The notes: generated by a model from the sequence alone, not told the origin. A stretch of 64,000 nucleotides of DNA from Microthyrium microscopicum (GCA_010405405.1 MU004235.1:1068538-1132537); one strand, 5' to 3'. Shown: positions 23,368-58,800, numbered from the stretch's first letter. A program made the numbers and translations.

Positions 23368-26300
23368 ATGGAGGTGGAAGGTGTAACTGAGCTTCCTGCT
23401 GAAGCAAATCCTTTGACAGAGGGTCTACTAATTCATGCTCTTCAAGCCGGTTTATCTGGCGACAACCAGCAACTGATCACTTCAAAACAACAGCTTGAAC
23501 AGTGGCAAACCAAGCCTGGATATTATCTGCACCTTGCGGTGAGTTAGAGCTCTCATTTCTGAACTTGACATATCATAGAACCTGTCACAGATAACATTTG
23601 TCCTACCCAAGACTACATGTCGTGTTTTGTCATGAGACAGATTATAAGAAATTCTTCCAAAATTGCATGCTAACTTGACTTTAGTTAGTCTTTGCGAATA
23701 GGCGGGTACAAAATGATGTCCGTCTTCAGGCAATCATACAACTTAAAAATGGAACCGAGAGACATTGGCGGAAAATGACTCGAAGGTTGGTCGAACATGC
23801 CACTCAAAATTCCTGTATTAACTCCTTATAGTGCAATATCTGACGACGACAAGAACCAGATTCGAGGAGGCCTTCTTCAAGCAACCATCAACGAACCCAA
23901 CAAACAACTAGCTTCTTTTGCAGCCGTTGTGTTGTCGAAAATTGCTAGATACGATTTCCCCACCAAATGGCCAGAAGTAATCACGCAGCTTATCGAAGCG
24001 ATTCGAAATTTCTCGGGCCCCCAATATCAAGGGGCTTTGCCGTATCAGCTCAGTCGTACCTTTCTTGTTCTCCTAAACGTTATCAAGGAAGTTGTACAGA
24101 CTCGGATAGGACCTGGTCGAGTACGCCTCAAGTCATTTACCACTGAACTTCTTGTTCTCATGGGATCGTCTTACTTTGCCGCTTTCCAACCCGACACGAT
24201 ACGATCCCTTTTGGCGACAACTGACCAATGGCCCATTCTCGAGGCTACCCTGGAGCAATCCTTATTTTCTATCAAGATTATTCGAAAGCTGTCTGTTGGC
24301 TTGATGGATCGACCAAAAGACGACGACACTTTTACAGAGTTCTGGTACAAATCACTCTCACTGTGCCAAGAAGCTTTGCAGATAGCGGTGTCGAACACCA
24401 ATGGTATGGAGGCAGAGTCACCTGTCGCTCTTCTTCTTCGCAAAAATCTATGTCAAATCGCCAAAATACATGTTGCTTTAGCAAAGAACAATCCGACCGA
24501 TTTCGCTCTCCTACAGACAGATCAATATGAAGTGGTACGATTGCATTGGCACATAATGTCTCTCCTAGGCCAGAAGTATGCTTCTTCCGCCGGCTATCCT
24601 CCTGTAACACAAGTGACAGGTTCCGTCAACGATTATGACGAGTCCAAACAGAACTTGATCGACAAGCTTGGTCATCAATCATTGCTTCTCCTCCGCGCCT
24701 GTGTGAAAATGGTTTCCCTGCCTGGACGAGGACTCAAGTATCGAAGCGAAGAGCAAAAGTTGCAAGATGAAGAAACAATGGCTAAATTGAAGGACACTGT
24801 CTTCACCAACGATGCCGTCCGTGAACTGGTCAGTCATATCATTTCGGAGATATTCCTCTTTCAGCCTGAGGACATGCGGGAATGGGAAGATGAACCTGAT
24901 GAGTGGGAAAAACGAGAGGAACTTAGTGGCGAGGACTACGAGTTTGCTCCTAGACCGTGTGCAGAGAAGCTTTTGCTTGATCTGGCAATTCATTTCAAAG
25001 ACGTCGCAATACCTCAAATCCTTCAAATGCTGCACACCGTAACTGGTAATGTTTGTTCCATCTATTCCCCGTCTTATCACTAATTTATCACAGCTTCTGG
25101 CTACTCTTCTCTGCTACAAAAAGAGGCTGTATACAACGCTATTGGAATTACTGCACCAGTTCTTGACCAACATCTTCAGTTCAAAGAACTAGTACAATCC
25201 AACCTCATCCCAGAGGTCCAAATTCAAAATCCAGAATACAAAGTCATTCGTCGACGAATAGCGCTTCTGGTTGGACAATGGTCCACCATCCAGGAGGCCG
25301 AAGGTGTCCGACCCATTTACTACCAAATCTTCCAATTCCTTTTGAACAAGGATGACCCAATCAACGATCAAGTAGTTCGAGTTGCTGCAGGTCGAGAATT
25401 AGGTCGAGCTGTCGACGCATGGCAGTACGATGCAAATGAATTCTTACCATACGCGGATGATCTACTCACCCGTTTGATGGCTCTTGTAGAAGAAGTCGAG
25501 CTTCCTGAAACCAAGATGAATCTACTTAGTACAATAAGCATTATTGTGGAACGACTTGATGAAAAGGTAACGTCACTTCTGACAATATACGTGTCAAGTA
25601 ATAATCTAACCTATTCAGATCTCTCCGCATGCAAAACGAATCGTCGAAATGTTACCGCAGCTTTGGGAGCAAGCTGGTGATGTACATTTGATGAAGCAAA
25701 CCATCCTTGGATTACTATCTCGACTCTTTAGGAGCATGAAGGAACAGGGTGCAAGTTATCATGCTTTGGTTCTACCTCTGATCAGAGACACTGTCACACC
25801 TGGATCTGAGCTTAGTGTCATCTTGATGGAAGACTCGTTGGAGCTTTGGCACACTGTAGTCCAGCAAACTCCCACGCCATCCACACCAGCCGACTTGAAT
25901 CCTGACCTCATATCGCTCATACAATACCTAATACCACTCCTCGAACACGACAGCGAATACCTCGAAAAGACCCTCGAGATTCTCGAAGCCTATACAACCC
26001 TGGCCCCATCCGTGATCCTCTCCAACGATGTCTATCCCAAAATTCTTGCAGCCTTCCTGCCAAAGCTAGGCACTATGCAATCTACCCAGAGCGGCTACAT
26101 AACCAATGCTATCGAGCATATACTGAATGCCGCTTTCGCCCTCGGCGGCACAAACGCAATCGGCGACCTTGTCCAACAAATGCTGCACCAGAAATTCTTC
26201 GACGCCATCATCGGTGGATTGAAAGAAGCCTGGGAAGCTCATCAAACCACCGGCCCACGCGCCATCCATACCAAAATCCAAGGCATTATTGAAACCGACT

Positions 26301-35768: not shown

Positions 35769-36562
35769 CATTCCTCACATGCTAACGAAGCTCTGATGGT
35801 CTTGCTGGACCTGTGGCCTTTGTCAACGGGTTCAAATCACCAACTCATGCTCTGGCTTCACTCTTTCTATACACTGAACGACCGGCGCCAATGGAAGCAG
35901 AGATCACACTGAATACACTTGATAAGGCAGTAGTAAGATTAACTAGTTAATGTCATTCCTCTTAGTGCTTCATGCCATTGCATCACTTGTTCATCTATTG
36001 ATTTTTCGTGCCATGATCCTCGTTATCGCTGAAGATATAACTGTTATGCCCTCAATTGGAGATGCTTGACAAAGCTTTACTACTCGCGAAAAATTTGTGC
36101 CTTGGCTACACTTTACCATGACCGACAGTACCCATCGAATGATGAGAAAGAACTATTTTTCGAAGGTGAGACGGCAACCACTTCTCCACCGCTGCCGTGG
36201 GGGCGCAAGAAAACTCTTCATTGTACTTCGTGGGCCAAACAAGATCCGGTCTCGGAAGCAAGACAGACGAGAAAAAGGCACCTATCGTGAATCCGAAATA
36301 AATCCAACATCACCCCACGAAATATGTTGATGAAGGCTCTGATGTTCAGTTCACGGCATCCATATGACGCGGATATTCCCGGATCTGGTCGTTGCAACAT
36401 CACGGACCAGATCGGGACTTCAATCAACCTCTTCAAAAATGTGGCCAGACCAAGACCAGCCAGTGGCGAGACCACAGTCCATCAACGAGGCAAAGCATGG
36501 CAAAATCTCGGCCGCGACTCACGACTCGCAAGACAACTGAAAATCTTGTCTCCAAGAGGCTA

Positions 36563-36637
36563 CCCATCGGTTAAGAACACGATCGCCGCAGGCGATCGGG
36601 GACACCTTAACGAGGAGGACACCTCAACGAGGACTCT
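36563..36637 (+). repeat. Left terminal inverted repeat
   Basis: CCCATCGGTTAAGAACACGATCGCCGCAGGCGATCGGGGACACCTTAACGAGGAGGACACCTCAACGAGGACTCT; 71/75 identical to the reverse complement of 39865-39939. Confidence 0.95.
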
Positions 36638-39600
36638 ATTTACTATAGATTACTAAATAATTAATTCTATACGCAAATTATGATATTATTTAATGTAATT
36701 AATATAGGGTATACCTATAGTACTATTCTATAGCTAGTATTAATTTTAGCAATTAATATTAACTTTTAGGGTGTAATCCTATATAGTAATTAAGTTATAT
36801 AGAATATATAAAAATTATAAAATCTCTTAATTTTAATAATAACTAAAACTACTTAAAGCAAATAACACTTAAATTTTATAGTAAATATAGTAAATAACGT
36901 GCGCGTTTTTATATTGTATGTTAGAAAGCGTTAAAGTTCTAAATAGTTAGTAGTACTTTAAGATTAATATCTTTATTGCTAGAACTAGCTAAAGACTAAT
37001 ATTCTTTATTAGTAATTATATCTAGATTGTTTAGCGCTTTATTACTATAGTATACTTTAATAGGATCTATAGGAAGCTAAGGAAGAGTAGGAAGCTATAA
37101 ATTAAAATACTATTTGATTAGTATATTCTTCTTATAATTATACTTAGGGTAATTAATTCCTATACCTAAAAGGTTACTAAAATACTACTACTAAGGATAG
37201 GTTTAAGGGTAATACTACTATGGTAGAGTAAGATCTTTAAATTATAGTAATAGCGAGTAATTTTAATAGGAATCTGCTTATTTGTACCTCTATATCTTTA
37301 TTATCTCTTTGTCCTTAGTAGCGCGCGTATCTAAAGGCTTGATTTCTTCTTTTTTAACCCTTATTTTACGCTTCTTCTTTAGTAACTAAGATCCCTTAGC
37401 TACTACTACCTAAGATACTTAAATGAGAGTAATTTTAGGCTTAGAATCCTTAAGATCTGTAATCTATAAAGCTTTTAAAGCTTTCTTGATGGTAGCATTC
37501 TTTCGTCTTATAATAATACCCTAAAGATTGGTCTAATTCTAGTTAGTGGCCTTTTTAAACGACTTGACGGTAAGGTAATGAAAAAGAGAGGGATAGACAT
37601 AATCGTAGAGGGCAAGTTAATAAAAAAGCTATAAATCTGTAATATAAAGTTAAATTCTACGCTAAGTATTTAGTAATTCTAACAAGCCTATAATATTATA
37701 ATCTCAAAAATTTGCAACGTAGATAAATCTACCTTTTTAAGCCTATTTCCTAGATCTAGATTTTATCTATTTATCGTAAAGTTAAGCTAGATATAAGTTA
37801 AAGTAGTAATTAATTAATTACGTATAAAGAGAGGCTATTACTTTAGTAGCTATTAGGAACGTCTTCCTATTTATTTTTCTCTATCGCCGTAGATTTATAG
37901 GAACTAAAGATACTAAAGAATGATCCCATAATTATACCTATATTAACATCTCTTTAAAGATCGCTGAATACGCTAGAGGAAGCTAAATCTTAGGTAATTT
38001 TATAGCTTTAGGTATTATAGCACGTCTTCTAAACTTCTAAGTCTTCCTATCCTAATTAGGGTATGTTTTTAGGCCTGCTAAAGGATCTACTATAGGTATG
38101 TGATTAAGTACTAGATAAGGATTAAAGGGTATTATTCCTATACGTCTCTAGGTACTCCTAATATTATTTTTAGTAAAGGTTTAAGATCTAATATGCTTAA
38201 TTATGGCAAAGAAGTGTTATTTATTAAAATTGATAATTCCTTAATGGGCGTAAATATTAATTTCTTCTAAATATTAGTGTTTTTATGGTTAAAAGATACT
38301 AATATCTAATGATTATAGGAAGTACGTTAAATATAAAGGTAGAAGTAATAATTTAATCTTATTTAGCTTACAGAATAGTACGAACTAGTAGGTAAGATAG
38401 CTCTTATATCTATTAATTATTAGAAGCCGCTAGTAAACCTTCTTTCGTGCTTAATCCTTTAGCTAGTGTTACTTTAAGAGTTATTAAAAATACTATATCT
38501 AAATAAATCCTAGGTAGTTGTTTAAATAACTACTATCTAATACTACTATAGTGAAGTTAGTACTCTAGATTTAGTAGTTTCAAAGCTATTAACTTACTAA
38601 TCGCGATATCTCCTAATATAAGCCTATTAAACTAAGATTTTAAGATAATGTGGCCTTTAGTAATAAGAAGAGGCGTAATAGTTCTTCTACTAGCAAAATA
38701 GGCCTCCATAGACGTTAAATTCTCTTAATTACTAAGTAATTTAATATGATTATAATGGCTACTAAAGAACTTGTGATTATTAGGCATAATTACTATCTAG
38801 CCTCTTCCTATATTAATTTAAATGCCTATTTCATCTATATTCTACTAATCTTTAGTTAGAATATTGTATTTATTAATTGTCTCTTTATAATCCTAATAGA
38901 ACTTAGTAATGGTATCTCTATTCATTGCCTGCTTATAAGTAGCTTTAATAGTAGGTTAAAATTATAGAGCAAAAGATAAGCGCTTTATCTAACGGCGAGC
39001 CTATTTTGAGCTAATTTAAGGTTGGTTTTAGAAGAGAATATTGTTAATATTAAGGATATCTCGTTGTAGGATCTCGTTAGTAGTACTCTATATAAGCTTA
39101 ACCTAAATAGGGACCCTAATCTTTGCTATAAGGTTAAGATATTACTTTAGGGTGCTTTCTTACGCTTTAAAGAGCTTTTATTAGTTTAATTTGCGTAAAG
39201 AATAAGATTTAGCGCGACTAGTATATCGCTAATGGAGTTGTTTAGGGTAAATTAAAGGGAATTTTACGGTGAGGGTCTTCTATATAGTCCTAGGCTATTT
39301 ATCTTTAAATTCTATAGCTTTTTTGATAGTTACTTCTTCGTCTATATATAACGCGCAATTTTGCTTTATTTATTAGGTTTTTAAAAGTATATTAATAGTA
39401 GTAGAAATAATTGTTGAAGTAGTGAATTATTAAAAGAGCTAGAATTATTATATTATAGATAATAGAACTAGAACTGCTTTATTATATAAAGTTAGATCTA
39501 CTAAGAGGGTCTAAGCGTTAAATTCCTATTTATTATAACTACTTTGCTAAAAGTATATATTATTTTCTAAAAATTTAGTAGTGTGTTTAAATAGGTATAA

Positions 39601-39864
39601 ATGAAGTTTAGTAAAAATATGAAAATTATCTAATAGTTAGTTACTAAGTAGTTGTAAGGAATGTATAGAAATTAAGAAATACTAACCTAATCCTAAGTTG
39701 AACTAATGATACTTAACTATTTATGCTATAGCTAGTTTCTAAGATATAATTCTCAAAATAATATAGGATTTATAGCTTTTACTACGGAATATAATTCCTC
39801 TTTTAGAATTCGAAAATATTACGTTTTAGCTATATGGCAGCTATATAAAGCAAAGAATATAGAA

Positions 39865-39939
39865 AGAGTCCTCGTTAAGGTATCCTCCTCGTTGAGGTAT
39901 CCCCGATCGCCTGCGGCGATCGTGTTCTTAACCGATGGG
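39865..39939 (-). repeat. Right terminal inverted repeat
   Basis: Reverse complement of the left TIR. All 4 differences are C/T at CpA sites. Confidence 0.95.
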
Positions 39940-42900
39940 TACAGACCTTAGCAAATGCAAGATAGCGATTTGCCAGCTAGACCCTGTCAAGATTGCCCGG
40001 ACAATCTTGTCAATCTAAACCGTATTTGGCACAGTCGCGGAGAACGGAAGCACGCGGACTCATTTTTTGTCTTTGAAAGCTGTCAAACCTGTCTTGGAAG
40101 AGATGCATCTATCCACTAATCTTACTCCGAACTTTGCAAGGTTGGAAGCTACGATGTTTGGATCAACGCGCGGACTCGCATTCTTGTAAACCGAAGTTTT
40201 GAACAATAAATTTAAACCTTTCGGAATGTATAAGATGGCCTTCCTGATTCGGAGAAAGCCTAGGGATCCCGAGCAAAGTGATTAGAAATGATCGAGTTAC
40301 TCCGAAAATCCGTCATCGGATGCGTCGGCAGCGGGCAACGAGTAGTCAAAAATTGCCAACGGCCAAGATTTTCTGCGTAACGTCGAAAGTTTACGAGGGT
40401 GATACAGCTACTACATTTCATTGGTATAGCAAACACAGATACTGTCTATGGTGGTATAGAATAGTCACAAGTCGTCGTAGAAGCTGTTAGCTTTGTGCGA
40501 GATGAGGAATCAATAATACGAATATAGCTATGGATACCAGAATCTGGCAGTGAAAGGTCAATCAGGCTGAAATGGGTCTTGGACGGGCCGAGTTTGATTA
40601 GAGATCTGCGAGGCCCGTAAGGCTGTCGAAAGTAATTTGCTAAGCTTTGTTTCGTGCCGGATATAGCAATTCAGGGCAGTGCTTTTGGGCAAGCTTGTGG
40701 AGGGCGGACGGATCCGATGGAGATTATTTGACGAGGTAGCAAGGCGGATCTAAGTATTTGACGATTATAAGGATTATATCGATTGTCTGTTTTTTGGCCG
40801 TAGGATTATCTTCTCGGTGTTGAGGCATTTATTTTTTCTAGAACGCAGCAACAAGGCTGAAAGGAGTGTGTGAATCGTGGCAGAGAATGAGAAGCATCAG
40901 ATCAGGCGTCATATTACGGTTAAATCGAAAACACTCATTTGTAGTACGCTACGAGCTCACTCTTCATATAAAATCGACCCCACTTTAGTCGAGCTTCATG
41001 GGCTTCCCCGGTTCATTTGTTCTTTGCTTAGGTCAGGGTGGCTGATCCCAGCATCAATTCCGGCTGGACATGGTAGAATGATATTGAAGCCTTGGATTTA
41101 TTAGGCATTCTCCCATCTAGTGCCGTAGTAGAAAAAATAAACAAATAAATTCTGGGAGCGATGACGGATACTGTCCGCATGATTTGAGGGTTTGAGGGCG
41201 CAGTCAAGTGTCAGCCTGATGGGTCATCATTCGCTCGCGGCTGAAGGCGCAGCCCGAAATAGCCTTGGCACATTACATCAAACAAACCCAAAGAGGGCAA
41301 GGCAAGAAATGATTGCGATTCAATCTATCTTGACAAAATAATCGTGGTAGCCTGACTATTAGCCCAAAAGGGTATGAAATAAGCGAAGCTTGATATTTGA
41401 TGGGAAAGAAAGAGTCATCGTGGTAAGTAAATGGAGTATTTGGAAGCGACATGGATGGAAATGACTTGGTTGTTTCAGAGAGGAAAAGAAGGATGAAACG
41501 AGGATGGGTCCTTTCGGTGTTGATTATATGAAGAACAATAATAGATCGTAGGATTCACTGTAGCAGATCTCAGAAATGATAACAATTATTAGAGTTGATA
41601 GCAATTAACAAACATCTGAAGAGACGGGATGTCAACAGATGAGTCGAAAGCGGGCGCATCATGCGAGTCATCGCAGGTTAACCAGTGAGAAGCGGCTCTG
41701 CCCGCTTACGCAATGCTTTAGTTAGCGCTAGTAGCTGCTTCTGCGTTGATGATTTGCTGGGTCAGGTTCTCTGCAGTAGCGTCATGCAACTAAACTCTAT
41801 ACTGGATGGTGAATGGCTAATCTGACTTGGCTGGTGTTGGCTGCTGCAAAACGCCCAAGATTGCTCAAGACACAGGATTCACCAAGCAACCAGAAACGAA
41901 AGCAAGGCTGCGTGGATGCCACACTGCCTGCTGCTAGCATGGGAACACATATCATGGTATGATGGGCCGTGGCGAGCCAGGTCTCCTAGGTGCCCACGAA
42001 GTTGGACCAACCAGCTCAGCTGGAGAGGTAAGAGAACAGTTGGCATTGGACAGAGGGGCGGATCAGGCATGGCATCCATTCAATTTCTGGGTGCAGCTGC
42101 AAGGCAAAGAGCAAGATGTTTGAGAAAAATGTGTCCCCTCTAGAGTCCAAGGGGCGAGCTGGACCGTGCAATAATGAAGCCAAGTTGCAAAGTTGCAAGT
42201 TGCAAGGCAAAAACCCAACTTGGCCCTTTCCGGAACCACAGCCCAGCGAAAAGCGAAAAGCCCAGCGGAACCTGCGACCCAGCACGAGAGACTTGGACTG
42301 TGCTCACTGGCCACTGCACGATGACTGGAGTAATCTGAGCAATCTGAGCCCACCACGCCTGTTGTGCTGTCGCTGCTGTCGCTCAGGCTCTGGTCGACCA
42401 CCTCATCAAAACTCGACTCCTCCCCCTTCTCTCCTCCGCTCCTCTCTATCACCGCAACGATGTCTTTTCCTCTCATCTAGATCGCTACGCGCGCCTGCGC
42501 TCTATCTATCCTCCAATAAATCAACTCTCTTCATCTTCTTAATCACCTCTTTGTGTTGTTTGCCTTCCTGAATCCGCGTAACCCCAACTCCTCCGCCTTT
42601 GGTACTCGATTTCTAGCTGCTTTTGCCTCCTTTGTCTCGCAATCCACCTCCAGTCCAAGCGCCGCTGCCTGGACCCCGTCGACTCACCCACCACCCCTTC
42701 ATACAACCAGTCAACACACTATTGCCTCTTTGAACATCTGTCATCTGAGGCCTTGCCACTTTCTCCTTCTTTTATTTTAAAATCTCCCCTCCTGCTTTTG
42801 TTTCTTGTTCAGTATCACGACCTTCGACTTACCCTTCACTAATACACCTTGTTCCGTCGCCCCCTCAGTCCTTCAGGTCATCCCCCATTCCGGCCCCGCC

Positions 42901-50248: not shown

Positions 50249-52658
50249 TCACCGCGCGCGAGTTCCGCGTCCTCGCACCAGGAATGGGCTGGGCATCTCA
50301 TCAGTCTCTGGATCCCACACCGGACACTGCTTAGTAGGGCTAGTAAACTTGCTCGCTTCTAGGGTACGGTCTATGCCGCCCGCGCGCGCTTGCGCCAGCT
50401 CAACGAGGGTGCGGCCATGGACTCCGCCCATCTGATTGCGAAGCGCTGTCTTCATCAAGCCGGCACCCCCGACACTAACTTCGTCACTAGCGCTGCCCTT
50501 CTTGCTGCGGAAGCCAGTGTTGGCTGTTGCTGCTTTGCGTGGAGAATTGCCAGATTCTGGGATGCGTGTTGCTCGACGGGTGGGCGAATCGGTGTTGGCG
50601 GCTGTCTTGCGAGTGGGTGAAGTTGCAACCACGGGCACAGCGGACGCAGGCCGCGGCTTGAGGACTGGCTGTGCTGCGGGTACAGAAGGATTCAGGGGAA
50701 AGAGTGATGGAGCGGAGGTTAGGCGCTTCATGTTGGCGGGTGCTGTACGCTCACGCGCGAGTGAAGGGCGGGCTTTGCGGGCGACAGGACCAGCGACTGG
50801 GACGCCTGCTCCCTGCATCTTACGCTTAGTATGAGCACGGGAGGGCGAAATCATGCTGAGGTCTGTGTCGGGTTCGTCGGCGGAGAGATCGGAGTATGCA
50901 ATGGTGTCGTCACTATCACTTATGTTTGTCGATTGCCAGCGCTTAGCCGGATCTTGGACCGTAGCGAAGATGTTGCTGTTTGTTTGTCGCGTATGACCGC
51001 GGCCTGGAGACAGATTGAGGTTGTCGATGCTCATTGGAGATGGCGAGGCCATGTGAACATCTTGAGGGGAGAAGACATCAATCATATCGAAAGATTGAAT
51101 GGTTGGTTGATTGGCAATGGTATGTGCGCGTGTAAAAGGAGTGCGTGTTGAGCGTCTTCGACCAGTCTTTGACTCTTGAGACGATTGTGTTGAGGGGTCA
51201 GATTCCAGGGAGAGGCGGCTGAGTCCTGGCCCAAGATCCGCAGACATCATATAGCTAGGCTGTCCCGAAGGTACTTCATCGCGAATAGTGGACTGTGTAC
51301 AGTCGGTATCCTCCTCTTGCGTGCTTGTCAGTCCGACTGCGGTTTTCCCACTAAGATTCGAGTGGACTGATGAGCGGCGTGAGCTGATGTCTTTCATGCG
51401 AGCTTTGCATAATTCTTCTGCCTTGGAGGCAACAGCAGCATCGAATTGGCCCTGGAACTCTGCTTTGGCTAGTGCAACCTGTCGGTCAATCTCTAGACGA
51501 GCCTTGACTTCCCATTCACGCCGAAGCTTAGTATTCACCTCCAGACTAACTTGCTGGCGATGTAGCTCAACCTCTTGTGCTTTTTTCTGAAGATCCTTGT
51601 GTAGTATTACTGCTTCTTGTTGCTTTCGTACCACGGAAACAATAGGCAGGTTTAAGAGATGTGCCGCAGTTGGTCGTTGGTTTGGGTTTACCTGAAGACA
51701 GCTGGTGATGACCTTTTGTAGTTCTTGGCTGTATACTGGCGGAATAGCGCGGAACTTGCCTAATCTGATCTTTTGGAATAATTCGATATGGGATCTCGCA
51801 TTGAAAGGAACCTCAAGGCTGCAGAGTTCGTAGATGATGCAGCCTAAAGACCAGATATCGGAAGCGCTTGTATAGCGCTCACTTCCAGCGAGCTCTGGGG
51901 ACATGTAGTAAGGTGTTCCAACGTAAGTGCTAGCAAAGTCGTGAGATTTTATGATCTTAGACAGGCCGAAGTCGCCAAGTTTGACATTGTTGTTATGGTC
52001 CAAGAACACTAAAGACGTCAGCACAAGACACATCAAATAAAATAGAGCGGGAATTTACCATTCTCTGGCTTAAGATCACGATGAATGATAACCAACGTTT
52101 GGCCTTTTGGAGGGGCCACGCGCTTCTTAGAGAGGCCAAACCAATCGTCCCCTACTTCGGGTGCATCGATGCCATTATGGCAGCGAAACAGGGCAGTAAC
52201 AATCTGGGCAAATATAGACCAAACAAACTGTTCTGGCGCATGCTCTCCCCGTCTCTTGTAGTCCTTGATAACTTGACCAAGATCGCCGTTCCCGCAGTAT
52301 TCCATATACATGTGTAGATCTTGTGTGGCTTTCAAGTGCTCGCGCTCGTAGTATTGGACGATGTTTGGATGACGAAGTTCTTTGAGAATGGAGAGTTCGG
52401 ACTGTAGTTGTTCTTTCTCTTTCTGGGACATTTTGAGATAAGAGATCTCTTTCCGACAGAGTATCTTTGGCAGACGTTAGACTGATTCTTGAGGGGCAAT
52501 AGGAGGGGATCACGTACCAAGCCATCCGACTTTCTCTTGACCTTGCTGATAACTCCAAAGGACCCTTGCCCTACTCTCTAGTTAGTATGTGATAGGAGGG
52601 AAGGAATGATGGTCATACCAATCTTGCCCAAAACCTCATATTTGTCGGAATCAGCCAT
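50249..52658 (-). CDS. nimA: NIMA (never-in-mitosis A) Ser/Thr kinase
   Basis: MADSDKYEVLGKIG|QGSFGVISKVKRKSDG|ILCRKEISYLKMSQKEKEQL, HRDLKPEN, KLGDFGLSKIIKSHDFASTYVGTPYYMSPE, coiled coil LRREWEVKARLEIDRQV, GRTLVELAQARAGG and WDPETDEMPSPFL. Three introns. Confidence 0.95.
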
Positions 52659-52889
52659 GATGCTGGCGGACCCGATCCGACGTTGCGCAGAATGTCCAAA
52701 ATGGAAAATAGGTATTATAGGTCTCCTCCAAGAATACCAATGAGAGGATGAAGAGAGTAGAGGATATTGGAGAGTTAATCTGGAGTAATTGAGAGGTGGG
52801 AGAGGGTTTGGACAAAGTGCAGGAAATATTGATCAGAGAGTGGTGCTTATGCTGGAAGTGTAGCAGAATGAAGCTAAGGGAGTTGGTTT

Positions 52890-52926
52890 TGTTTACAAGC
52901 AATCCATGGCTTGGTTGCCATGGATT
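52890..52926. promoter_or_regulatory. Forkhead site plus RFX/X-box-like inverted repeat upstream of nimA
   Basis: TGTTTAC at 52890-52896, then the perfect 10-bp inverted repeat AATCCATGGC-ttggtt-GCCATGGATT containing GTTGCCATGG. Confidence 0.45.
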
Positions 52927-53788
52927 GAGAGTTAAGCAGGGCGCTAACCGAATAAAGTTAGCGAATAGTGACTGGCTCAAGCGCCATCCAATGATATCTC
53001 CGCACGGGTAACTCCGAACTGCTATAAGGCTAGCCTTGGCAAGGCTGCGCAACAATCAAGTAAACCCCATTTCTGATATGCAGATAGGAGGATTTACCAT
53101 TGTTTGCTTCACTGAGATACATGCGTGTTCTGTATCTGACAATTAGGTGCCATGGAGCTGCGTTCAAGCTTCCCGTGCTGCCTTGGCCTTGCTTTAGGCG
53201 ACCACGATTTCAGCCTGACAAAGAACACATCAAATCTCAATTGACCACAATTTGAACAAGATATTCGATCTCACGGAAAATCAATAAGCAGAATAGGAGA
53301 TCAAATCTCGGCGCGGTGACTACTTAACAGGCTTTCGCTCAAGCAGTGAGGTTCAAGCAGTGAGGTTCTCGCGATTCTATGGACCTACCAGGCCCTAAAT
53401 GCTAAGACGATGGTGGAGTTGCAAGATTGGCAGCAACTTTTACCTTGTAAGTTTCTTCAAAGAGCCTCCTGGGCGTTCATGCAGATGTTAGAAGAATGAT
53501 GCCTGAGTGGATAATATAACTTCTCCATTCAATGGTTGCAGTATCTCTTGCTATTGACTGGACGCGTATATTTTCTAGTATACGTGGACAAACATACGCT
53601 GGCTGGCGACTCCTGCTAGAATTAGGTATCGCGAGGATTAGAAAAACAATGCCTTGTCAAGTTTTACTTGGAGCTTTCAAACGGAAGTGATATATAGCAG
53701 GGCAATCTCGGTAACTCTTCAATATGCTGCAGCAAAAAGATTTCGACCTTTAACGCATATTCCATCTTTTCTCTCACACAAGAGAAAC

Positions 53789-53795
53789 AAAAAAA
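53789..53795 (-). terminator. T7 tract: likely RNA polymerase III terminator of the tRNA gene
   Basis: TTTTTTT on the minus strand, about 18 nt downstream of the tRNA discriminator base. Confidence 0.7.
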
Positions 53796-53812
53796 GAAAT
53801 AACCTTTGAAAT

Positions 53813-54001
53813 TGCGGCGACCGAGACTCGAACTGATTATCTTGTCAGAATCACCAATGCAATTGATATGTTACAGTAAAATTACCTCGGCGCTCAAGCA
53901 GATTTCTCATTATAGCATGGGAAGCTTGAACTAAGTTCAAGTTAGTCAAAGTCTTATAAATGACTTCACCATGTTTACTTTTACCCCTAAACCACCGCCG
54001 C
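53813..54001 (-). tRNA. tRNA-Gly(CCC) interrupted by two spliceosomal-type introns and one canonical tRNA intron
   Basis: Exons 53979-54001, 53918-53930, 53886-53900 and 53813-53832 give 71 nt: GCGGCGG TG GTTT AGGGGTA AAAT T CAAGC TT CCC AT GCTTG AGCG CCGAG TTCGAGT CTCGG TCGCCGC A. All four stems pair. Gly identity elements G1-C72, C2-G71, G3-C70, C35/C36 and A73 are present. Confidence 0.9.
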
Positions 54002-54492
54002 ATTTTGGTAAATCAAAATTCCGCACAATTCATACATAATCAACAGTGGTTGTTCTTTGAGTTCCTTCCGCCAACGCGCACCTGTAACGGTCAAAAGTCA
54101 TGAATTCTCTGCACGATGTAGAATCAAATGTAGCAAAGCCTTGCGTATCACTTTACTTTACAATTTTGGCGACTGAAACAAATGCGCATCAGAAATAGAG
54201 AAGTGTTCTGCGAGCAAGTCAAGAAATGTTGATGGAAAATCTGCAAGGTGAAGTTTGATACTGCGAACTTTGACGGCATTAGCTTGACTCCCAATGTGAA
54301 ACGACATCCAGTTGCAGTGAAGCGGTGCGACTGCCGTAATAGGCAGTCGGGAGAGGAAGAGTGTGGAAGTTCCACTAGGCAAATGCCATGTCACGTGCTG
54401 GGCTTTTTTCTGGGATGCAACTTTAAACCTCAACCTTCAAACTCTCAGCAGCTTGTCATCGCTTCTACACTCACGCATACAAACCATTCACC

Positions 54493-55743
54493 ATGTCTGA
54501 CACTGAGCATCAATCTCCAGAAAACCTTCAGGATGGTGGGAATCCAGCACAAGATCAAGTCCCAGACGGCGAAAGCGCACCGCTGCAAGAGCAGCCTAGC
54601 GATGGCGAACAAGCACCCGCAGAGACCGCTCTCACCACCACAAACCCCGAAAAGAAAATGAAAAAAGTAAAACGAGTCAAGAAGCGCCGAGCTGCTCGAA
54701 TACAAGTTGATCCCGCAACCTTCAAGCCTCCAGCACCCGAAGCCAGTGGCACAATATTCAACATCTGGTATAACAAATGGTCGGGTGGTGACCGTGACGT
54801 TCCCGTTCAGTTTGCTGCGCCAAATCGATGCGATATCGAAAAAGACGCCGGCTATACCCTTGCCGATAGTATCTCAGGCTCATATTTCTGTTTATACTTT
54901 GCGCGAGGTATCTGCACCAAAGGTCGCGATTGCGAATATCTACATCGATTACCTGGGATTCACGATATATTCAATCCCAACATGGATTGCTTCGGTAGAG
55001 ACAAGTTCTCGGATTACAGAGATGACATGGGTGGTGTTGGTAGCTTTATGCGACAAAATCGAACCCTTTACATCGGCCGAATCCACGTCACGGATGATAT
55101 CGAAGAGATCGTGGCGAGACACTTTGCGGAATGGGGACAAGTTGAGAGAACTCGAGTGTTGAATCAACGAGGTGTCGCATTCGTCACCTACTCAAATCTT
55201 GCCAATTCGGAGTTTGCCAAAGAAGCGATGGCTCATCAATCGCTCGACAATGGTGAAGTGCTCAATGTTCGATGGGCCACCATGGATCCCAACCCGGCGG
55301 CACAAAAGCGAGAGGCACGAATGATCGAAGAGCAAGCCGCGGAGGCTATACGAAGAGCATTACCACCAGATTACGTTGCTGAACTCGAAGGGAGAGGTGT
55401 GGATTCACGGAAAAAGAGAAAGACAGAAGGAAACTTCGGCTTGGAAGGATACGAAGCCCCGGATGATGTTTGGTTTGCGAAAGAAAAGGCCGAATGGATA
55501 GCTCAACAACGGGGATTGCCCAGTGGAAGTGCCGCTTCGATTGAAGGAGATGTGCAACACACAATTGAACCTCCACCAGGGCAACAGGATCAGCAAGACT
55601 TGGGTGGCATTCTCTCTGGCTCTACTCTGGCGGCGTTGAAGGCTCGAACGACAAGTACACCCAAGGTCGCTTTCACTACAGCAAAACAAGCAACATCCTC
55701 AGGCCCTCTCGTGGCATATGGTAGTGATGATGACAGTGATTGA
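54493..55743 (+). CDS. CWC2: Pre-mRNA splicing factor Cwc2 (CCCH zinc finger + RRM)
   Basis: GTIFNIWYNKWSGGD, YFCLYFARGICTKGRDCEYLHRLP, DCFGRDKFSDYRDDMGGVGSF, NRTLYIG and FAKEAMAHQSL..EVLNVRWAT. Single exon. Confidence 0.96.
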   Translation: MSDTEHQSPENLQDGGNPAQDQVPDGESAPLQEQPSDGEQAPAETALTTTNPEKKMKKVKRVKKRRAARIQVDPATFKPPAPEASGTIFNIWYNKWSGGDRDVPVQFAAPNRCDIEKDAGYTLADSISGSYFCLYFARGICTKGRDCEYLHRLPGIHDIFNPNMDCFGRDKFSDYRDDMGGVGSFMRQNRTLYIGRIHVTDDIEEIVARHFAEWGQVERTRVLNQRGVAFVTYSNLANSEFAKEAMAHQSLDNGEVLNVRWATMDPNPAAQKREARMIEEQAAEAIRRALPPDYVAELEGRGVDSRKKRKTEGNFGLEGYEAPDDVWFAKEKAEWIAQQRGLPSGSAASIEGDVQHTIEPPPGQQDQQDLGGILSGSTLAALKARTTSTPKVAFTTAKQATSSGPLVAYGSDDDSD

Positions 55744-55847
55744 GAATATCATCAACAATAGCAATTACATTCAGAAAATCTGGATATACTACTTTAGCTT
55801 TCGGGTGGCAGGAAACATCTGAGGATTTGCGACGCAAAGATATAAGC

Positions 55848-58800
55848 CTAAATCTGGCCAACTGGCCGATTGAGTAAGAGGAATACCCGTGCCATTAGGT
55901 CAGCAATACGAAACGGCTTTGCGAGAAAGTCATCCTAAGCATGTTAGTAAAATCATGACAGCTCATTGAATCATTTTCTCACCATCCCAGCTGCTAGAGC
56001 TCGCTCACGTTGTTCCATTCTCACATTTGCCGTCACCCCAATGATAGGAATATGGCCTTTCAATTCTCCATTTGCCTCCAACTCACGAACCCGTTTTGCG
56101 CAAGTCAATCCATCCATGACCGGCATTTCCTAGTCGAGCAGGACGATGGATATAGGCTGAAGTGGGTTAGATGCCCAAGCCGAGTTTTGAATTTGTTCTA
56201 GCCCTTCTTGTCCATGGTTGGCAACCAGCACCTTGCACCCAACCTTCTGGAGCTGCCTGGAGAGCATCTTCTGATTAATCAAGTTGTCTTCGACGATGAG
56301 TACTGTTAGCTCTTTGGCATTTGGCTCCTTCATTCCTACTTTCGCAACCCCGGATCCCGGTGATAACACTGGCGTGGTTCTTGGTGTCATTCTACCTGTA
56401 AATATGTCAATCGAATGCCACGTTAGTCCGATGACGTCTGAAAACCTACATTGGGCGGGACTTGTAGCTAGTGCAGTGGTAGATGGGGACTCTTGTGGTT
56501 GTGTCCGGGTTATCAAGGTAGTCATGGTATGGCTGGACAAAGATCGGAGCAATGGAGGTGGGTTTGGCCGCGCTGGCAAAGTCTGCGGTCCAACAAAAGG
56601 TATACTGGAAGTGCTGGATACGCTCTGTCTTTGTTCATTCGGCTGATGAGTTCCTTGGGCGTATGCTCGTGCTTTAATGAAGAACGCGAATGTACACCCG
56701 TGGCTGGTTTGTGGATTCAAGCCGATGGCGCCGCCTTGCAGTCCTGCGAGTCGGCGAGAGATATACAATCCAAGCCCGCTACTACCGTATTGGATGTGTG
56801 TTTTTGGCGACGCTTCGTATTGTTAGCAGAGTTAAGGGTGCCTATTGACAGCCTCTTACCTTGTGCAAAGCGCGTGAATAGATGCTATCCAGTTCGTCAG
56901 TAAATAAACCAGCACGAGAACGATAGAGATATTTACCTGTCGATCTTCTTGTGTCATACCCTTTCCAGTGTCCCTGACCGCGACATGAATAAACAAACAC
57001 CGGCCATCCCCCTACTCAGGCCGGGTTGTCGGATCTTGTTGAGTTTCTTCCATTGGATAGTACTCACAGTTTTCCATCCACTGAGGCTTCTCGCACGCAT
57101 CGAGCGTAATAGTGATTTTCCTTACTGCCTGATACTTGGTAAATTTGATGGCGTTGGTTATAAGATTGATGCTGATCTGTGTGAACCTAGTTGTGTTAAA
57201 CATAAATTGTTCGATAGCAAGCTCGCGATATCTCTCTGATATAACAAGGTGGAACTGGACATCAGCTTTAGCCGCATCTTTCTGGAATATTTTCAAACTG
57301 GTTCGAATCTCTTTCTCTGGGTTGGCCAGGACCGGGTAGACATCCATCAGTTGAGAGTCTAATTTCGAAGCAGACAACTGAAAATGATTAGCCTCACTAC
57401 TTGTCGCTATCTTTAACTTCACAATTGGAGCAAAGCCCAGAGTGTATGCTGTGCGTGGAGTGAAACTCACCACGTCATCAACGATTCGCTTCTGGTGCTT
57501 TGCACAGGCAAGAACAACTTTTCTACCTCTCCGTTAGTCATCTTAGGAAGCATCTACACAAAACAGAGAAACACGATAGTCCTAGTCCTAATCCTTCTTT
57601 GCGGCGGACAGGGGGCTGGAAGATGCAAAGCTTACCTATTGTCTATCACACTGTCAAGATCTTCCAAAAGGGCGGATTCTGCGATCTTCCCAGGGCCTAT
57701 CTCCACGATGCTTGAGACAGTTTCCACAATGTCTTCAGAGGCGAGGAGGATAGCAGAAAGGGGATTTCGTAGTTCGTGGTTTGTCGAGTCGATAAAACTC
57801 TCTAGTCGTTTTTTGGATTCCAAGGTTTCAGACACCATTTTCTCTTGTACTTCGTTGGCCCATTTCAACGCACTGATATCTGTTACGCCTGCATAGATCT
57901 GAACATGACCAAGTTCGGAGTCCATTACAGGAAAAGCAGTAACCTGGAGCCATACACGATGATCTTGCCCGTCGTCGCCCGAGGGAGAGCCAGTTTCTTC
58001 GTTCTGTGGACGCCATTGTGATTTGCATTTGATCTCGTACGTGACAGGAACGTTTCCTTCGGTGAGTTTTGCCCAGCTGGAGTATATCATGGGAAGCCAT
58101 TCTGGGTCTGCCATGGATCCCCAAACATCTTGAACGCGTGTATGTGTTTCGTGGGAGAAGCTTGTCAAGGCGGCCGTATTTCGATACACATAAGTTCCAT
58201 CAGTTTCTGCAATGAATACACCCAATGGGCTTCGTTCAACAAAAAGCCTCATCAGCTTTTCAGTCCTTACAACCTTTAACTTTGTTTCAGTCAATTCTCG
58301 GGAAATTTCTGCCTAGGTAATGTTAGCATCTAAAGCCGATCGCAACAAAGAGACACGACTGCCTGGAAGGGCGGTGGTGAAAAAACAAACCTGTTTCGCC
58401 TCGCGTTTGACGAGTTGTCTCAGCGACCCAAGAGCGGTGCTTATCAAAGTTACAATAGCCTCGATAAAATCAGAGCATCGATCATCAAGGGCTGTTCGGG
58501 GATTGATACCAATCGCAATGTACCCGGCAGTCAGAGAAGTATCGTATCTGAGGGGGGAGATGACAACAGCTCGGCACTCCTCGCCAAAGTCTTTAGTGAT
58601 AACGTTTGCTAGAAGCTCTGGCGGAAGAGTGCCATCTTCTCTGTGTAGTACTACAGGTCTTCCGGTCTCATAGCAAATACTGCAGAACCTCTCCAATCCA
58701 CTCTCAGTTGAGTTTAACCTGACTTCTGGCATTGCTGTGGGATGGTTTGTTGGTATGCCGAAAGAACCTCTAAGAAGCAACTGAGACATATCATTCACAT

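Follow-up and report, generated by a model that had tools for sequence, protein, structure and literature searches.

The 64,000-nucleotide (nt) stretch of the Microthyrium microscopicum assembly considered here (GCA_010405405.1, MU004235.1:1068538-1132537; one strand, read 5' to 3', in the following called the window) carries on its minus strand a transfer RNA (tRNA) gene for glycine with the anticodon CCC, which is broken up by three inserts. Two of these, located in the D arm and in the T arm, have the form of short spliceosomal introns, and the third, in the anticodon loop, is of the canonical tRNA type. The gene stays hidden from the usual tools, as in the unspliced genomic DNA no tRNA has been called by ARAGORN, with or without its intron mode, and none by Rfam at gathering scores, while a relaxed Rfam search with E-values up to 10 over positions 53750-54060 has returned two chance matches only and no tRNA. 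A motif scan of our own over both strands of the 64 kilobases (kb) has searched for a T loop followed by a 7-nt acceptor 3' strand and has further required, within 500 nt, a 5' strand that pairs completely and leads into an A-box-like head; this locus has been found to be the sole split tRNA in the window. Its parts are the following, with the A and B boxes assigned by comparison with their consensus forms and all positions counted from the first letter of the window.

53813..54001, minus strand: split tRNA-Gly(CCC) gene, 189 nt, from G1 to the discriminator A73 (ARAGORN after removal of the inserts)
53979..54001, minus strand: exon 1, 23 nt (tRNA nt 1-24 in standard numbering), with the 5' strand of the acceptor stem, the 5' strand of the D stem, the D loop and also 3 nt of the 3' strand of the D stem
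53984..53994, minus strand: A-box-like element TGGTTTAGGGG, gene nt 8-18
53931..53978, minus strand: intron 1, 48 nt, D arm, of spliceosomal type (GTAAAC...GACTAAC...TTAG)
53941..53945, minus strand: CTAAC, candidate branch site in intron 1, whose branch A (53942) is separated from the 3' end by 11 nt
53918..53930, minus strand: exon 2a, 13 nt, with the end of the D stem, nt 26, the 5' strand of the anticodon stem and the loop through A37, including the anticodon CCC
53901..53917, minus strand: intron 2, 17 nt, at the canonical position 37/38, without GT..AG ends
53886..53900, minus strand: exon 2b, 15 nt, with nt 38, the 3' strand of the anticodon stem, a 4-nt variable loop and the 5' strand of the T stem
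53833..53885, minus strand: intron 3, 53 nt, T arm between tRNA nt 53 and 54, of spliceosomal type (GTAATT...TCTGAC...ATCAG)
53878..53881, minus strand: T4 run in intron 3, the only T4 inside the gene
53844..53848, minus strand: CTGAC, candidate branch site in intron 3, whose branch A (53845) is separated from the 3' end by 12 nt
53824..53834, minus strand: B-box-like element AGTTCGAGTCT in the genomic DNA, gene nt 168-178
53813..53832, minus strand: exon 3, 20 nt, with the T loop, the 3' strand of the T stem, the 3' strand of the acceptor stem and A73
53789..53795, minus strand: T7 tract, candidate terminator for RNA polymerase III (Pol III), 17 nt after A73

Removal of the three inserts by their coordinates leaves 71 nt, which ARAGORN recognises as tRNA-Gly(ccc) with a complete and perfect cloverleaf, consisting of an acceptor stem of 7 base pairs (bp), a D stem of 4 bp, a T stem of 5 bp and an anticodon stem that the program draws with 6 bp and that counts 5 bp in standard numbering (nt 27-31 with 39-43). 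The nucleotides U8, A14, G18-G19, U33, T54-T55-C56, A58, C61 and A73 are all present in the spliced form. At the acceptor end of the spliced product, the ARAGORN output contains the pairs G1-C72, C2-G71 and G3-C70 together with the discriminator A73, which we take to be glycine identity elements. Removal of introns 1 and 3 alone is already sufficient for a call, as ARAGORN then still reports tRNA-Gly(CCC) in an 88-nt form with a 17-nt anticodon-loop intron. No exon has been found to carry a disruptive change, and this suggests that the tRNA has been under selection in its spliced form. At the level of sequence, the object has been confirmed as a tRNA-Gly(CCC) gene in which two introns of spliceosomal type are combined with one canonical tRNA intron, and it is a real nuclear gene of this filamentous ascomycete, which probably still functions.

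For intron 1, only one boundary is compatible with the given mature sequence; it has GT..AG ends, and its donor sits after gene nt 23 (between positions 53979 and 53978 of the window), which is the only boundary that restores the full D arm. For intron 3, the boundary can slide by 0-2 nt with an unchanged product because of an AG/AG repeat formed by the exon end and the intron end, and one of the three equivalent boundaries reads GT..AG. The probability of such ends has been estimated from shuffles of each insert and from all 48- and 53-nt segments of the 64 kb. GT..AG ends alone are expected by chance at an insert with 0.34-0.43%, and GT..AG ends in combination with a CTRAY motif located 8-20 nt from the 3' end with 1.3e-4 to 2.6e-4 per insert. 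Two inserts with such signals inside one 71-nt gene are not due to chance.

A local standard for the architecture of spliceosomal introns is available from the kinase gene, one of the two protein-coding genes that flank the tRNA gene:

50249..52832, minus strand (same strand as the tRNA): NimA/NEK-like protein kinase gene, downstream neighbour, recognised by Pkinase matches
54493..55743, plus strand: Cwc2-type pre-mRNA splicing factor gene, divergent neighbour, recognised by Torus and RRM

Two introns of the kinase gene are evident from a 5000-nt spliced contig of a transcriptome-like run, which is 100% identical to the window. One of them (52465-52517, 53 nt, GTACGT..CTAAC..AAG) has 12 nt after the branch A, and the other (52571-52618, 48 nt, GTATGA..TACTAAC..TAG) has 11 nt. 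The two long inserts of the tRNA gene match these proven introns, 1.3 kb away, because both the lengths (48 and 53 nt) and the distances between branch site and acceptor (11 and 12 nt) are equal. Lengths of 42-57 nt have also been observed for 14 of the 23 candidates in a heuristic intron set compiled from the window by taking the shortest GT..AG interval with CTRAY that bridges open reading frames (ORFs), a set that is noisy, includes false positives and serves for a rough comparison of lengths and T-runs only; for one confirmed intron with a true length of 48 nt it has taken a 45-nt variant. The kinase gene holds a third candidate intron at 52009-52058 (minus strand, 50 nt, donor GTAAAT, GCTGAC 9 nt from the acceptor), which joins open frames of 139 and 585 codons.

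Taking the signals, the boundaries and the local resemblance into account, the best explanation is that the tRNA gene has acquired two putative introns of the U2-type GT-AG class, which interrupt the D arm between nt 24 and 25 and the T arm between nt 53 and 54. Cleavage of the inserts by the tRNA splicing endonuclease has been evaluated with the bulge-helix-bulge (BHB) geometry, in which exon bases immediately preceding the 5' site form a 4-bp helix with intron bases immediately preceding the 3' site, and this helix is accompanied by two 3-nt bulges. Intron 1 has failed this test with 1/4 central pairs, and intron 3 has failed it as well, with 1/4, 0/4 and 1/4 central pairs across its three equivalent boundaries. 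For intron 2, 3/4 central pairs have been found in addition to the anticodon stem, which amounts to a relaxed BHB-like pairing with the anticodon loop; by this pairing and by its position at 37/38 it is a canonical eukaryotic tRNA intron, and ARAGORN accepts it as such. As introns 1 and 3 are spliceosomal in form and not of the BHB type, and as intron 2 is canonical, two different splicing systems seem to be required for this gene.

A preliminary description of the locus had regarded the split gene as still competent for transcription by Pol III, and the individual features on which it relied have been recovered. As had been claimed, exon 1 contains the whole A box (gene nt 8-18 against exon 1 nt 1-23), because the only boundary that gives a full D arm puts the donor of intron 1 after gene nt 23. 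The claim of an intact B box in the genomic DNA has equally been borne out, as the same string is present in the spliced tRNA; the AG closing intron 3 supplies the first two bases, and the string is identical before and after splicing. What had been described as rebuilding of this box by the 3' splice site is automatic, however, because an AG-ending intron sits after an exonic AG (intron 3 is preceded by exonic ..CCGAG and ends in ..ATCAG), and the only conserved base that it concerns is G53, together with an A that is not conserved. All three inserts fall within the spacer between the two boxes, which thereby reaches 149 bp; according to the available text of PMC12498455, transcription is still possible when A and B box are as much as about 365 bp apart. 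The count of T-runs has agreed with the T4 given as the longest run in any intron and with the T7 after the gene: runs of at least three T in the 189-nt gene are T3, T3, T3 and T4, and a T5 is located 57 nt beyond the T7. Five Ts are reported to terminate about 90% of transcripts in Schizosaccharomyces pombe (PMC3592421, available part), so that T5, not T4, is the relevant threshold if the present fungus behaves as S. pombe does.

Further suggestions of the preliminary description have fared less well. A constraint on the introns to avoid Pol III termination is unsupported, since runs of T5 or longer are absent in 79% of shuffles and in 22 of the 23 local intron candidates; T4 or longer is absent in 40% of shuffles of the three introns, and an avoidance of terminators is undetectable with two introns. 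Insertion at an AG/GT proto-splice site fits the upstream side of intron 3, with GAG before and T after the intron, and does not fit intron 1, with AAA before and T after it. As regards Pol III competence itself, the gene is compatible with a type-2 unit, but the features put forward are expected anyway and do not discriminate. In particular, A and B boxes do not separate Pol III from RNA polymerase II (Pol II), because the same bases of D loop and T loop form the structural core of the tRNA. The layout as a whole, in which inserts confined to the spacer, a close T7 and a stand-alone gene in an intergenic gap of 1.5 kb come together, leans towards Pol III.

The tRNA gene is alone in this gap. 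The kinase gene starts about 1 kb downstream of it, with its RNA-type contig ending at 52805, and the RNA-type contigs at the Cwc2 gene begin at 54300 and 54470. In the transcriptome-like run, spliced contigs with 100% identity extend over both flanking genes, and none has been found on 52806-54299, including the tRNA; this gap is uninformative with regard to expression, because short Pol III RNAs drop out of such assemblies. Among the runs listed for 52000-55800, none is recorded as RNA. Low-depth DNA contigs of another sample cover 53506-53737 and 54020-54701, leaving out the tRNA gene, and another DNA run has contributed only a 37-nt piece in the kinase gene with less than 90% identity. The closest named homologues of the Cwc2 protein belong to the Dothideomycetes Tothia, Trichodelitschia and Verruconis (66-72% identity), and homologues from metagenomes, encoded on JGI contigs of up to 711 kb, reach 74-78%. 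That a gene for a splicing factor lies beside the split tRNA is probably a coincidence.

A scan of metagenomes with a 19-nt pattern across the junction of exon 1 and intron 1 has yielded 11 loci, none of which continues in a tRNA-Gly-like manner. At four loci (L001, L006, L007 and L010), a start resembling a tRNA head continues into about 170 nt that are alike among the four and end in an A-run; they resemble a tRNA-derived repeat like a short interspersed element (SINE) of a plant or other eukaryote and are unrelated to the split tRNA. Elsewhere in the window, an AT-rich island extends over 36501-40000, with a GC content of 0.27-0.32 compared to about 0.47 around it, a TpA/ApT index of 1.4-1.7 and a (CpA+TpG)/(ApC+GpT) index of 0.3-0.6, as is characteristic of a degraded repeat that has undergone repeat-induced point mutation. 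Beyond the Cwc2 gene, open frames on the minus strand at 56130-56822 and 55971-56129 are, by eye from their translations, histidine-kinase-like and response-regulator-like, as in a hybrid sensor kinase.

For the expression of the split tRNA, the following course is proposed. TFIIIC would bind to the intact A box and to the genomically intact B box across the 149-bp spacer, and Pol III would transcribe about 220 nt, up to the T7. In the nucleus, the spliceosome would then take out introns 1 and 3, just as in the case of intron-containing fungal U6 genes, and only afterwards would the tRNA endonuclease and ligase, measuring from the folded mature domain, remove intron 2. The reading that the gene is functional, with transcription by Pol III and splicing by both systems in this way, has in our view an even chance of being correct. 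The Pol III features listed in the preliminary description permit this route and are not evidence for it, because each of them is expected anyway. The more general proposition, that a natural pre-tRNA may need both systems, passing twice through the spliceosome without cap and C-terminal domain (CTD) before it is handed to endonuclease and ligase, and that spliceosomal introns may colonise tRNA genes and persist in them if they land in the A-B spacer, is put forward tentatively and with more doubt than confidence.

Several observations weigh against a Pol III-made, doubly spliced and functional gene. With Pol III, neither the cap nor the CTD is available, both of which normally aid the recruitment of the spliceosome. 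A TATA-like element has not been found in the region -80 to -1 of the tRNA gene, and a fraction of transcripts could end prematurely at the T4 in intron 3. The donors are weak as well: G at +5 is missing in both of them (A in GTAAAC, T in GTAATT), whereas both RNA-confirmed kinase introns have it, although ORF-supported local donors without G at +5 do exist in the heuristic set (GTAAAT at 52058 and GTAATG at 25046) and this G, part of the extended 5' splice site consensus that pairs with U1 and U6, is not strictly required. The exonic context of intron 1 is poor, with AAA in place of AG. Moreover, a competing GT (GTAAAA; position 53984 of the window, minus strand, gene nt 18) lies 6 nt upstream of the donor of intron 1 and has a slightly better exonic context (G before the GT) than the donor that restores the cloverleaf. 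Splicing from this upstream GT would lead to a 65-nt product that has lost the 3' half of the D stem, and the last G of the A box would become intronic; the site may give rise to mis-splicing or serve in regulation. Finally, where GGG is read by tRNA-Gly(UCC), a tRNA-Gly(CCC) may not be needed, so that a decaying copy is possible.

In an alternative reading, the tRNA is embedded in a capped non-coding transcript of Pol II, for instance one that diverges from the Cwc2 promoter. Its introns would then be removed co-transcriptionally, RNase P and RNase Z would free the tRNA, and the boxes would be kept as tRNA structure only. The tRNA lies about 300-470 bp upstream of the Cwc2 gene and is divergent from it, so that a divergent transcript of this promoter would read the tRNA in sense. 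Spliceosomal introns are, in addition, normally gained and kept in Pol II transcripts, the features ascribed to Pol III have been found non-discriminating for the split tRNA, and the missing TATA-like element in the 80 nt upstream is in line with this alternative. Against it stand the complete stand-alone Pol III layout, with inserts only in the A-B spacer and a T7 17 nt past the 3' end, the isolated position in a 1.5-kb intergenic gap, which is like that of fungal tRNA genes, and the precedent of a spliceosomally spliced U6 made by Pol III (PMC5855946, in its available part). On balance we judge a Pol II origin of the transcript unlikely.

Another explanation starts from the same weak donors without G at +5 and from the cryptic donor 6 nt upstream of intron 1. 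The gene could be a non-functional relic, that is, a redundant copy of tRNA-Gly(CCC) that has been hit by two intron-like insertions, for instance of introner-like elements, with its intact exons reflecting a recent event. The possible dispensability of the CCC isoacceptor would allow for such a fate, and the AG/AG repeat at intron 3 could represent a target duplication of 2 nt. The coincidence required is considerable, however: two independent insertions would have occurred in one target of 71 bp, each with a correct GT, branch site, spacing and AG, at a chance of about 1e-4 each for the signals, and both would also have spared the A and B boxes. Exons without any disruptive change likewise speak against a decaying copy. 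Introner-like elements are multi-copy, intron-generating repeats of Dothideomycetes, and among the matches listed (64-kb window; intron 1 and most of intron 2), no look-alike longer than 10 nt has been found, except for one 12-nt stretch with a mismatch. A dead copy is considered improbable.

Non-canonical tRNA introns that are cut by the tRNA splicing endonuclease are known from Cyanidioschyzon merolae, nucleomorphs and archaea, and those of C. merolae are of the BHB type. The existence of C. merolae tRNA genes with introns in D arm, anticodon arm and T arm (PMC9602550, available text) may be taken as a hint that the two long inserts are of this kind as well and that their GT..AG ends are coincidental. 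The low numbers of central pairs (1/4 for intron 1, 0-1/4 for intron 3) and the full spliceosomal signals, which both inserts carry at the local spacing, make such an assignment very improbable. An assembly artefact or chimera, with inserts absent from the DNA of the organism, might be entertained because the whole stretch has been matched only in runs that are possibly the source of the assembly, with the other DNA contigs compared ending short of the gene, but it is hardly credible at all, as the exact local intron architecture would not arise by misassembly and contigs of another sample match the flanks at 53506-53737 and 54020-54267 with 100% identity.

The textbook division assigns spliceosomal introns to the transcripts of Pol II, the odd cases in fungi being U6 and a few genes for small nuclear RNAs (snRNAs) and ribosomal RNAs (rRNAs), and tRNA introns are cut by proteins at position 37/38. 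If a natural tRNA precursor does serve as a substrate of the spliceosome, the known hosts of spliceosomal introns would be extended to the most abundant class of Pol III transcripts, and the gene would offer a natural system for spliceosome recruitment without cap-binding complex and CTD. It would further bear on the gain of introns, where reverse splicing into abundant RNAs and insertion of introners are to be told apart. If the gene is a dead copy, it would be a mere curiosity. A practical consequence concerns a blind spot of tRNA finders: as ARAGORN and Rfam miss the split tRNA-Gly(CCC), isoacceptors that are seemingly missing in fungi may hide in split genes.

With regard to known systems, a literature search, with subscription papers and old scans outside its coverage, so that reports may exist, has turned up no account of spliceosomal introns that occur naturally in tRNA genes. 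An actin intron placed in an engineered yeast tRNA gene was reportedly spliced by the pre-mRNA pathway (Koehrer, Vogel and Domdey, EMBO J, 1990). This would show that the spliceosome can act on a tRNA precursor made by Pol III; coming from an artificial construct, it is a lead and is not used as evidence here. In the available part of PMC5855946, tRNA is absent from the list of non-coding RNAs (ncRNAs) with spliceosomal introns, and a recent preprint speaks, in the text available, of 'non-spliceosomal tRNA introns' (bioRxiv 10.64898/2026.07.09.736142). An apparent counterpart is the three-intron tRNA of C. merolae (PMC9602550, available text), which is like the split tRNA in being a eukaryotic nuclear gene interrupted in the same three arms. 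Its introns are described there as atypical tRNA introns, whereas introns 1 and 3 of the present gene fail the BHB test and carry spliceosomal signals. In Rhodotorula, spliceosomal introns have been described in the genes for the U1, U2 and U5 snRNAs, and in ascomycetes they have been described in rRNA genes (Takahashi 1993, 1996; Bhattacharya 2000, as cited in the available part of PMC5855946). These cases share with the split tRNA that introns of mRNA type reside in fungal ncRNA genes, of which the ribosomal DNA is not read by Pol II, and they differ from it in RNA class and polymerase.

The closest parallel is found in U6. The U6 snRNA of S. pombe is made by Pol III and has a spliceosomal intron that is spliced (Tani and Ohshima 1989, 1991, as cited in the available part of PMC5855946), and one to four spliceosomal introns per gene have been predicted for other fungal U6 genes (Canzler 2016, cited in the same part). 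Like the split tRNA, these are short ncRNA genes with internal Pol III promoter elements and short introns that contain canonical splice and branch sites. The arrangement of the promoter is different, as the B box of S. pombe U6 lies inside the intron, judging from the title of Frendewey 1990 (in PMC5855946), whereas that of the split tRNA is exonic, apart from the AG it shares with the intron end. The host RNA differs as well, being a tRNA here and not a component of the spliceosome, and because of this the argument of reverse splicing at the catalytic centre, which has been made for U6, is not directly applicable. In contrast to U6, the split tRNA also contains a canonical tRNA intron, so that two splicing systems would be needed, and splicing is known for S. 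pombe U6 and predicted for the present gene. As a natural tRNA gene with putative introns of mRNA type, it is an extension of the known class of such introns in ncRNA genes.

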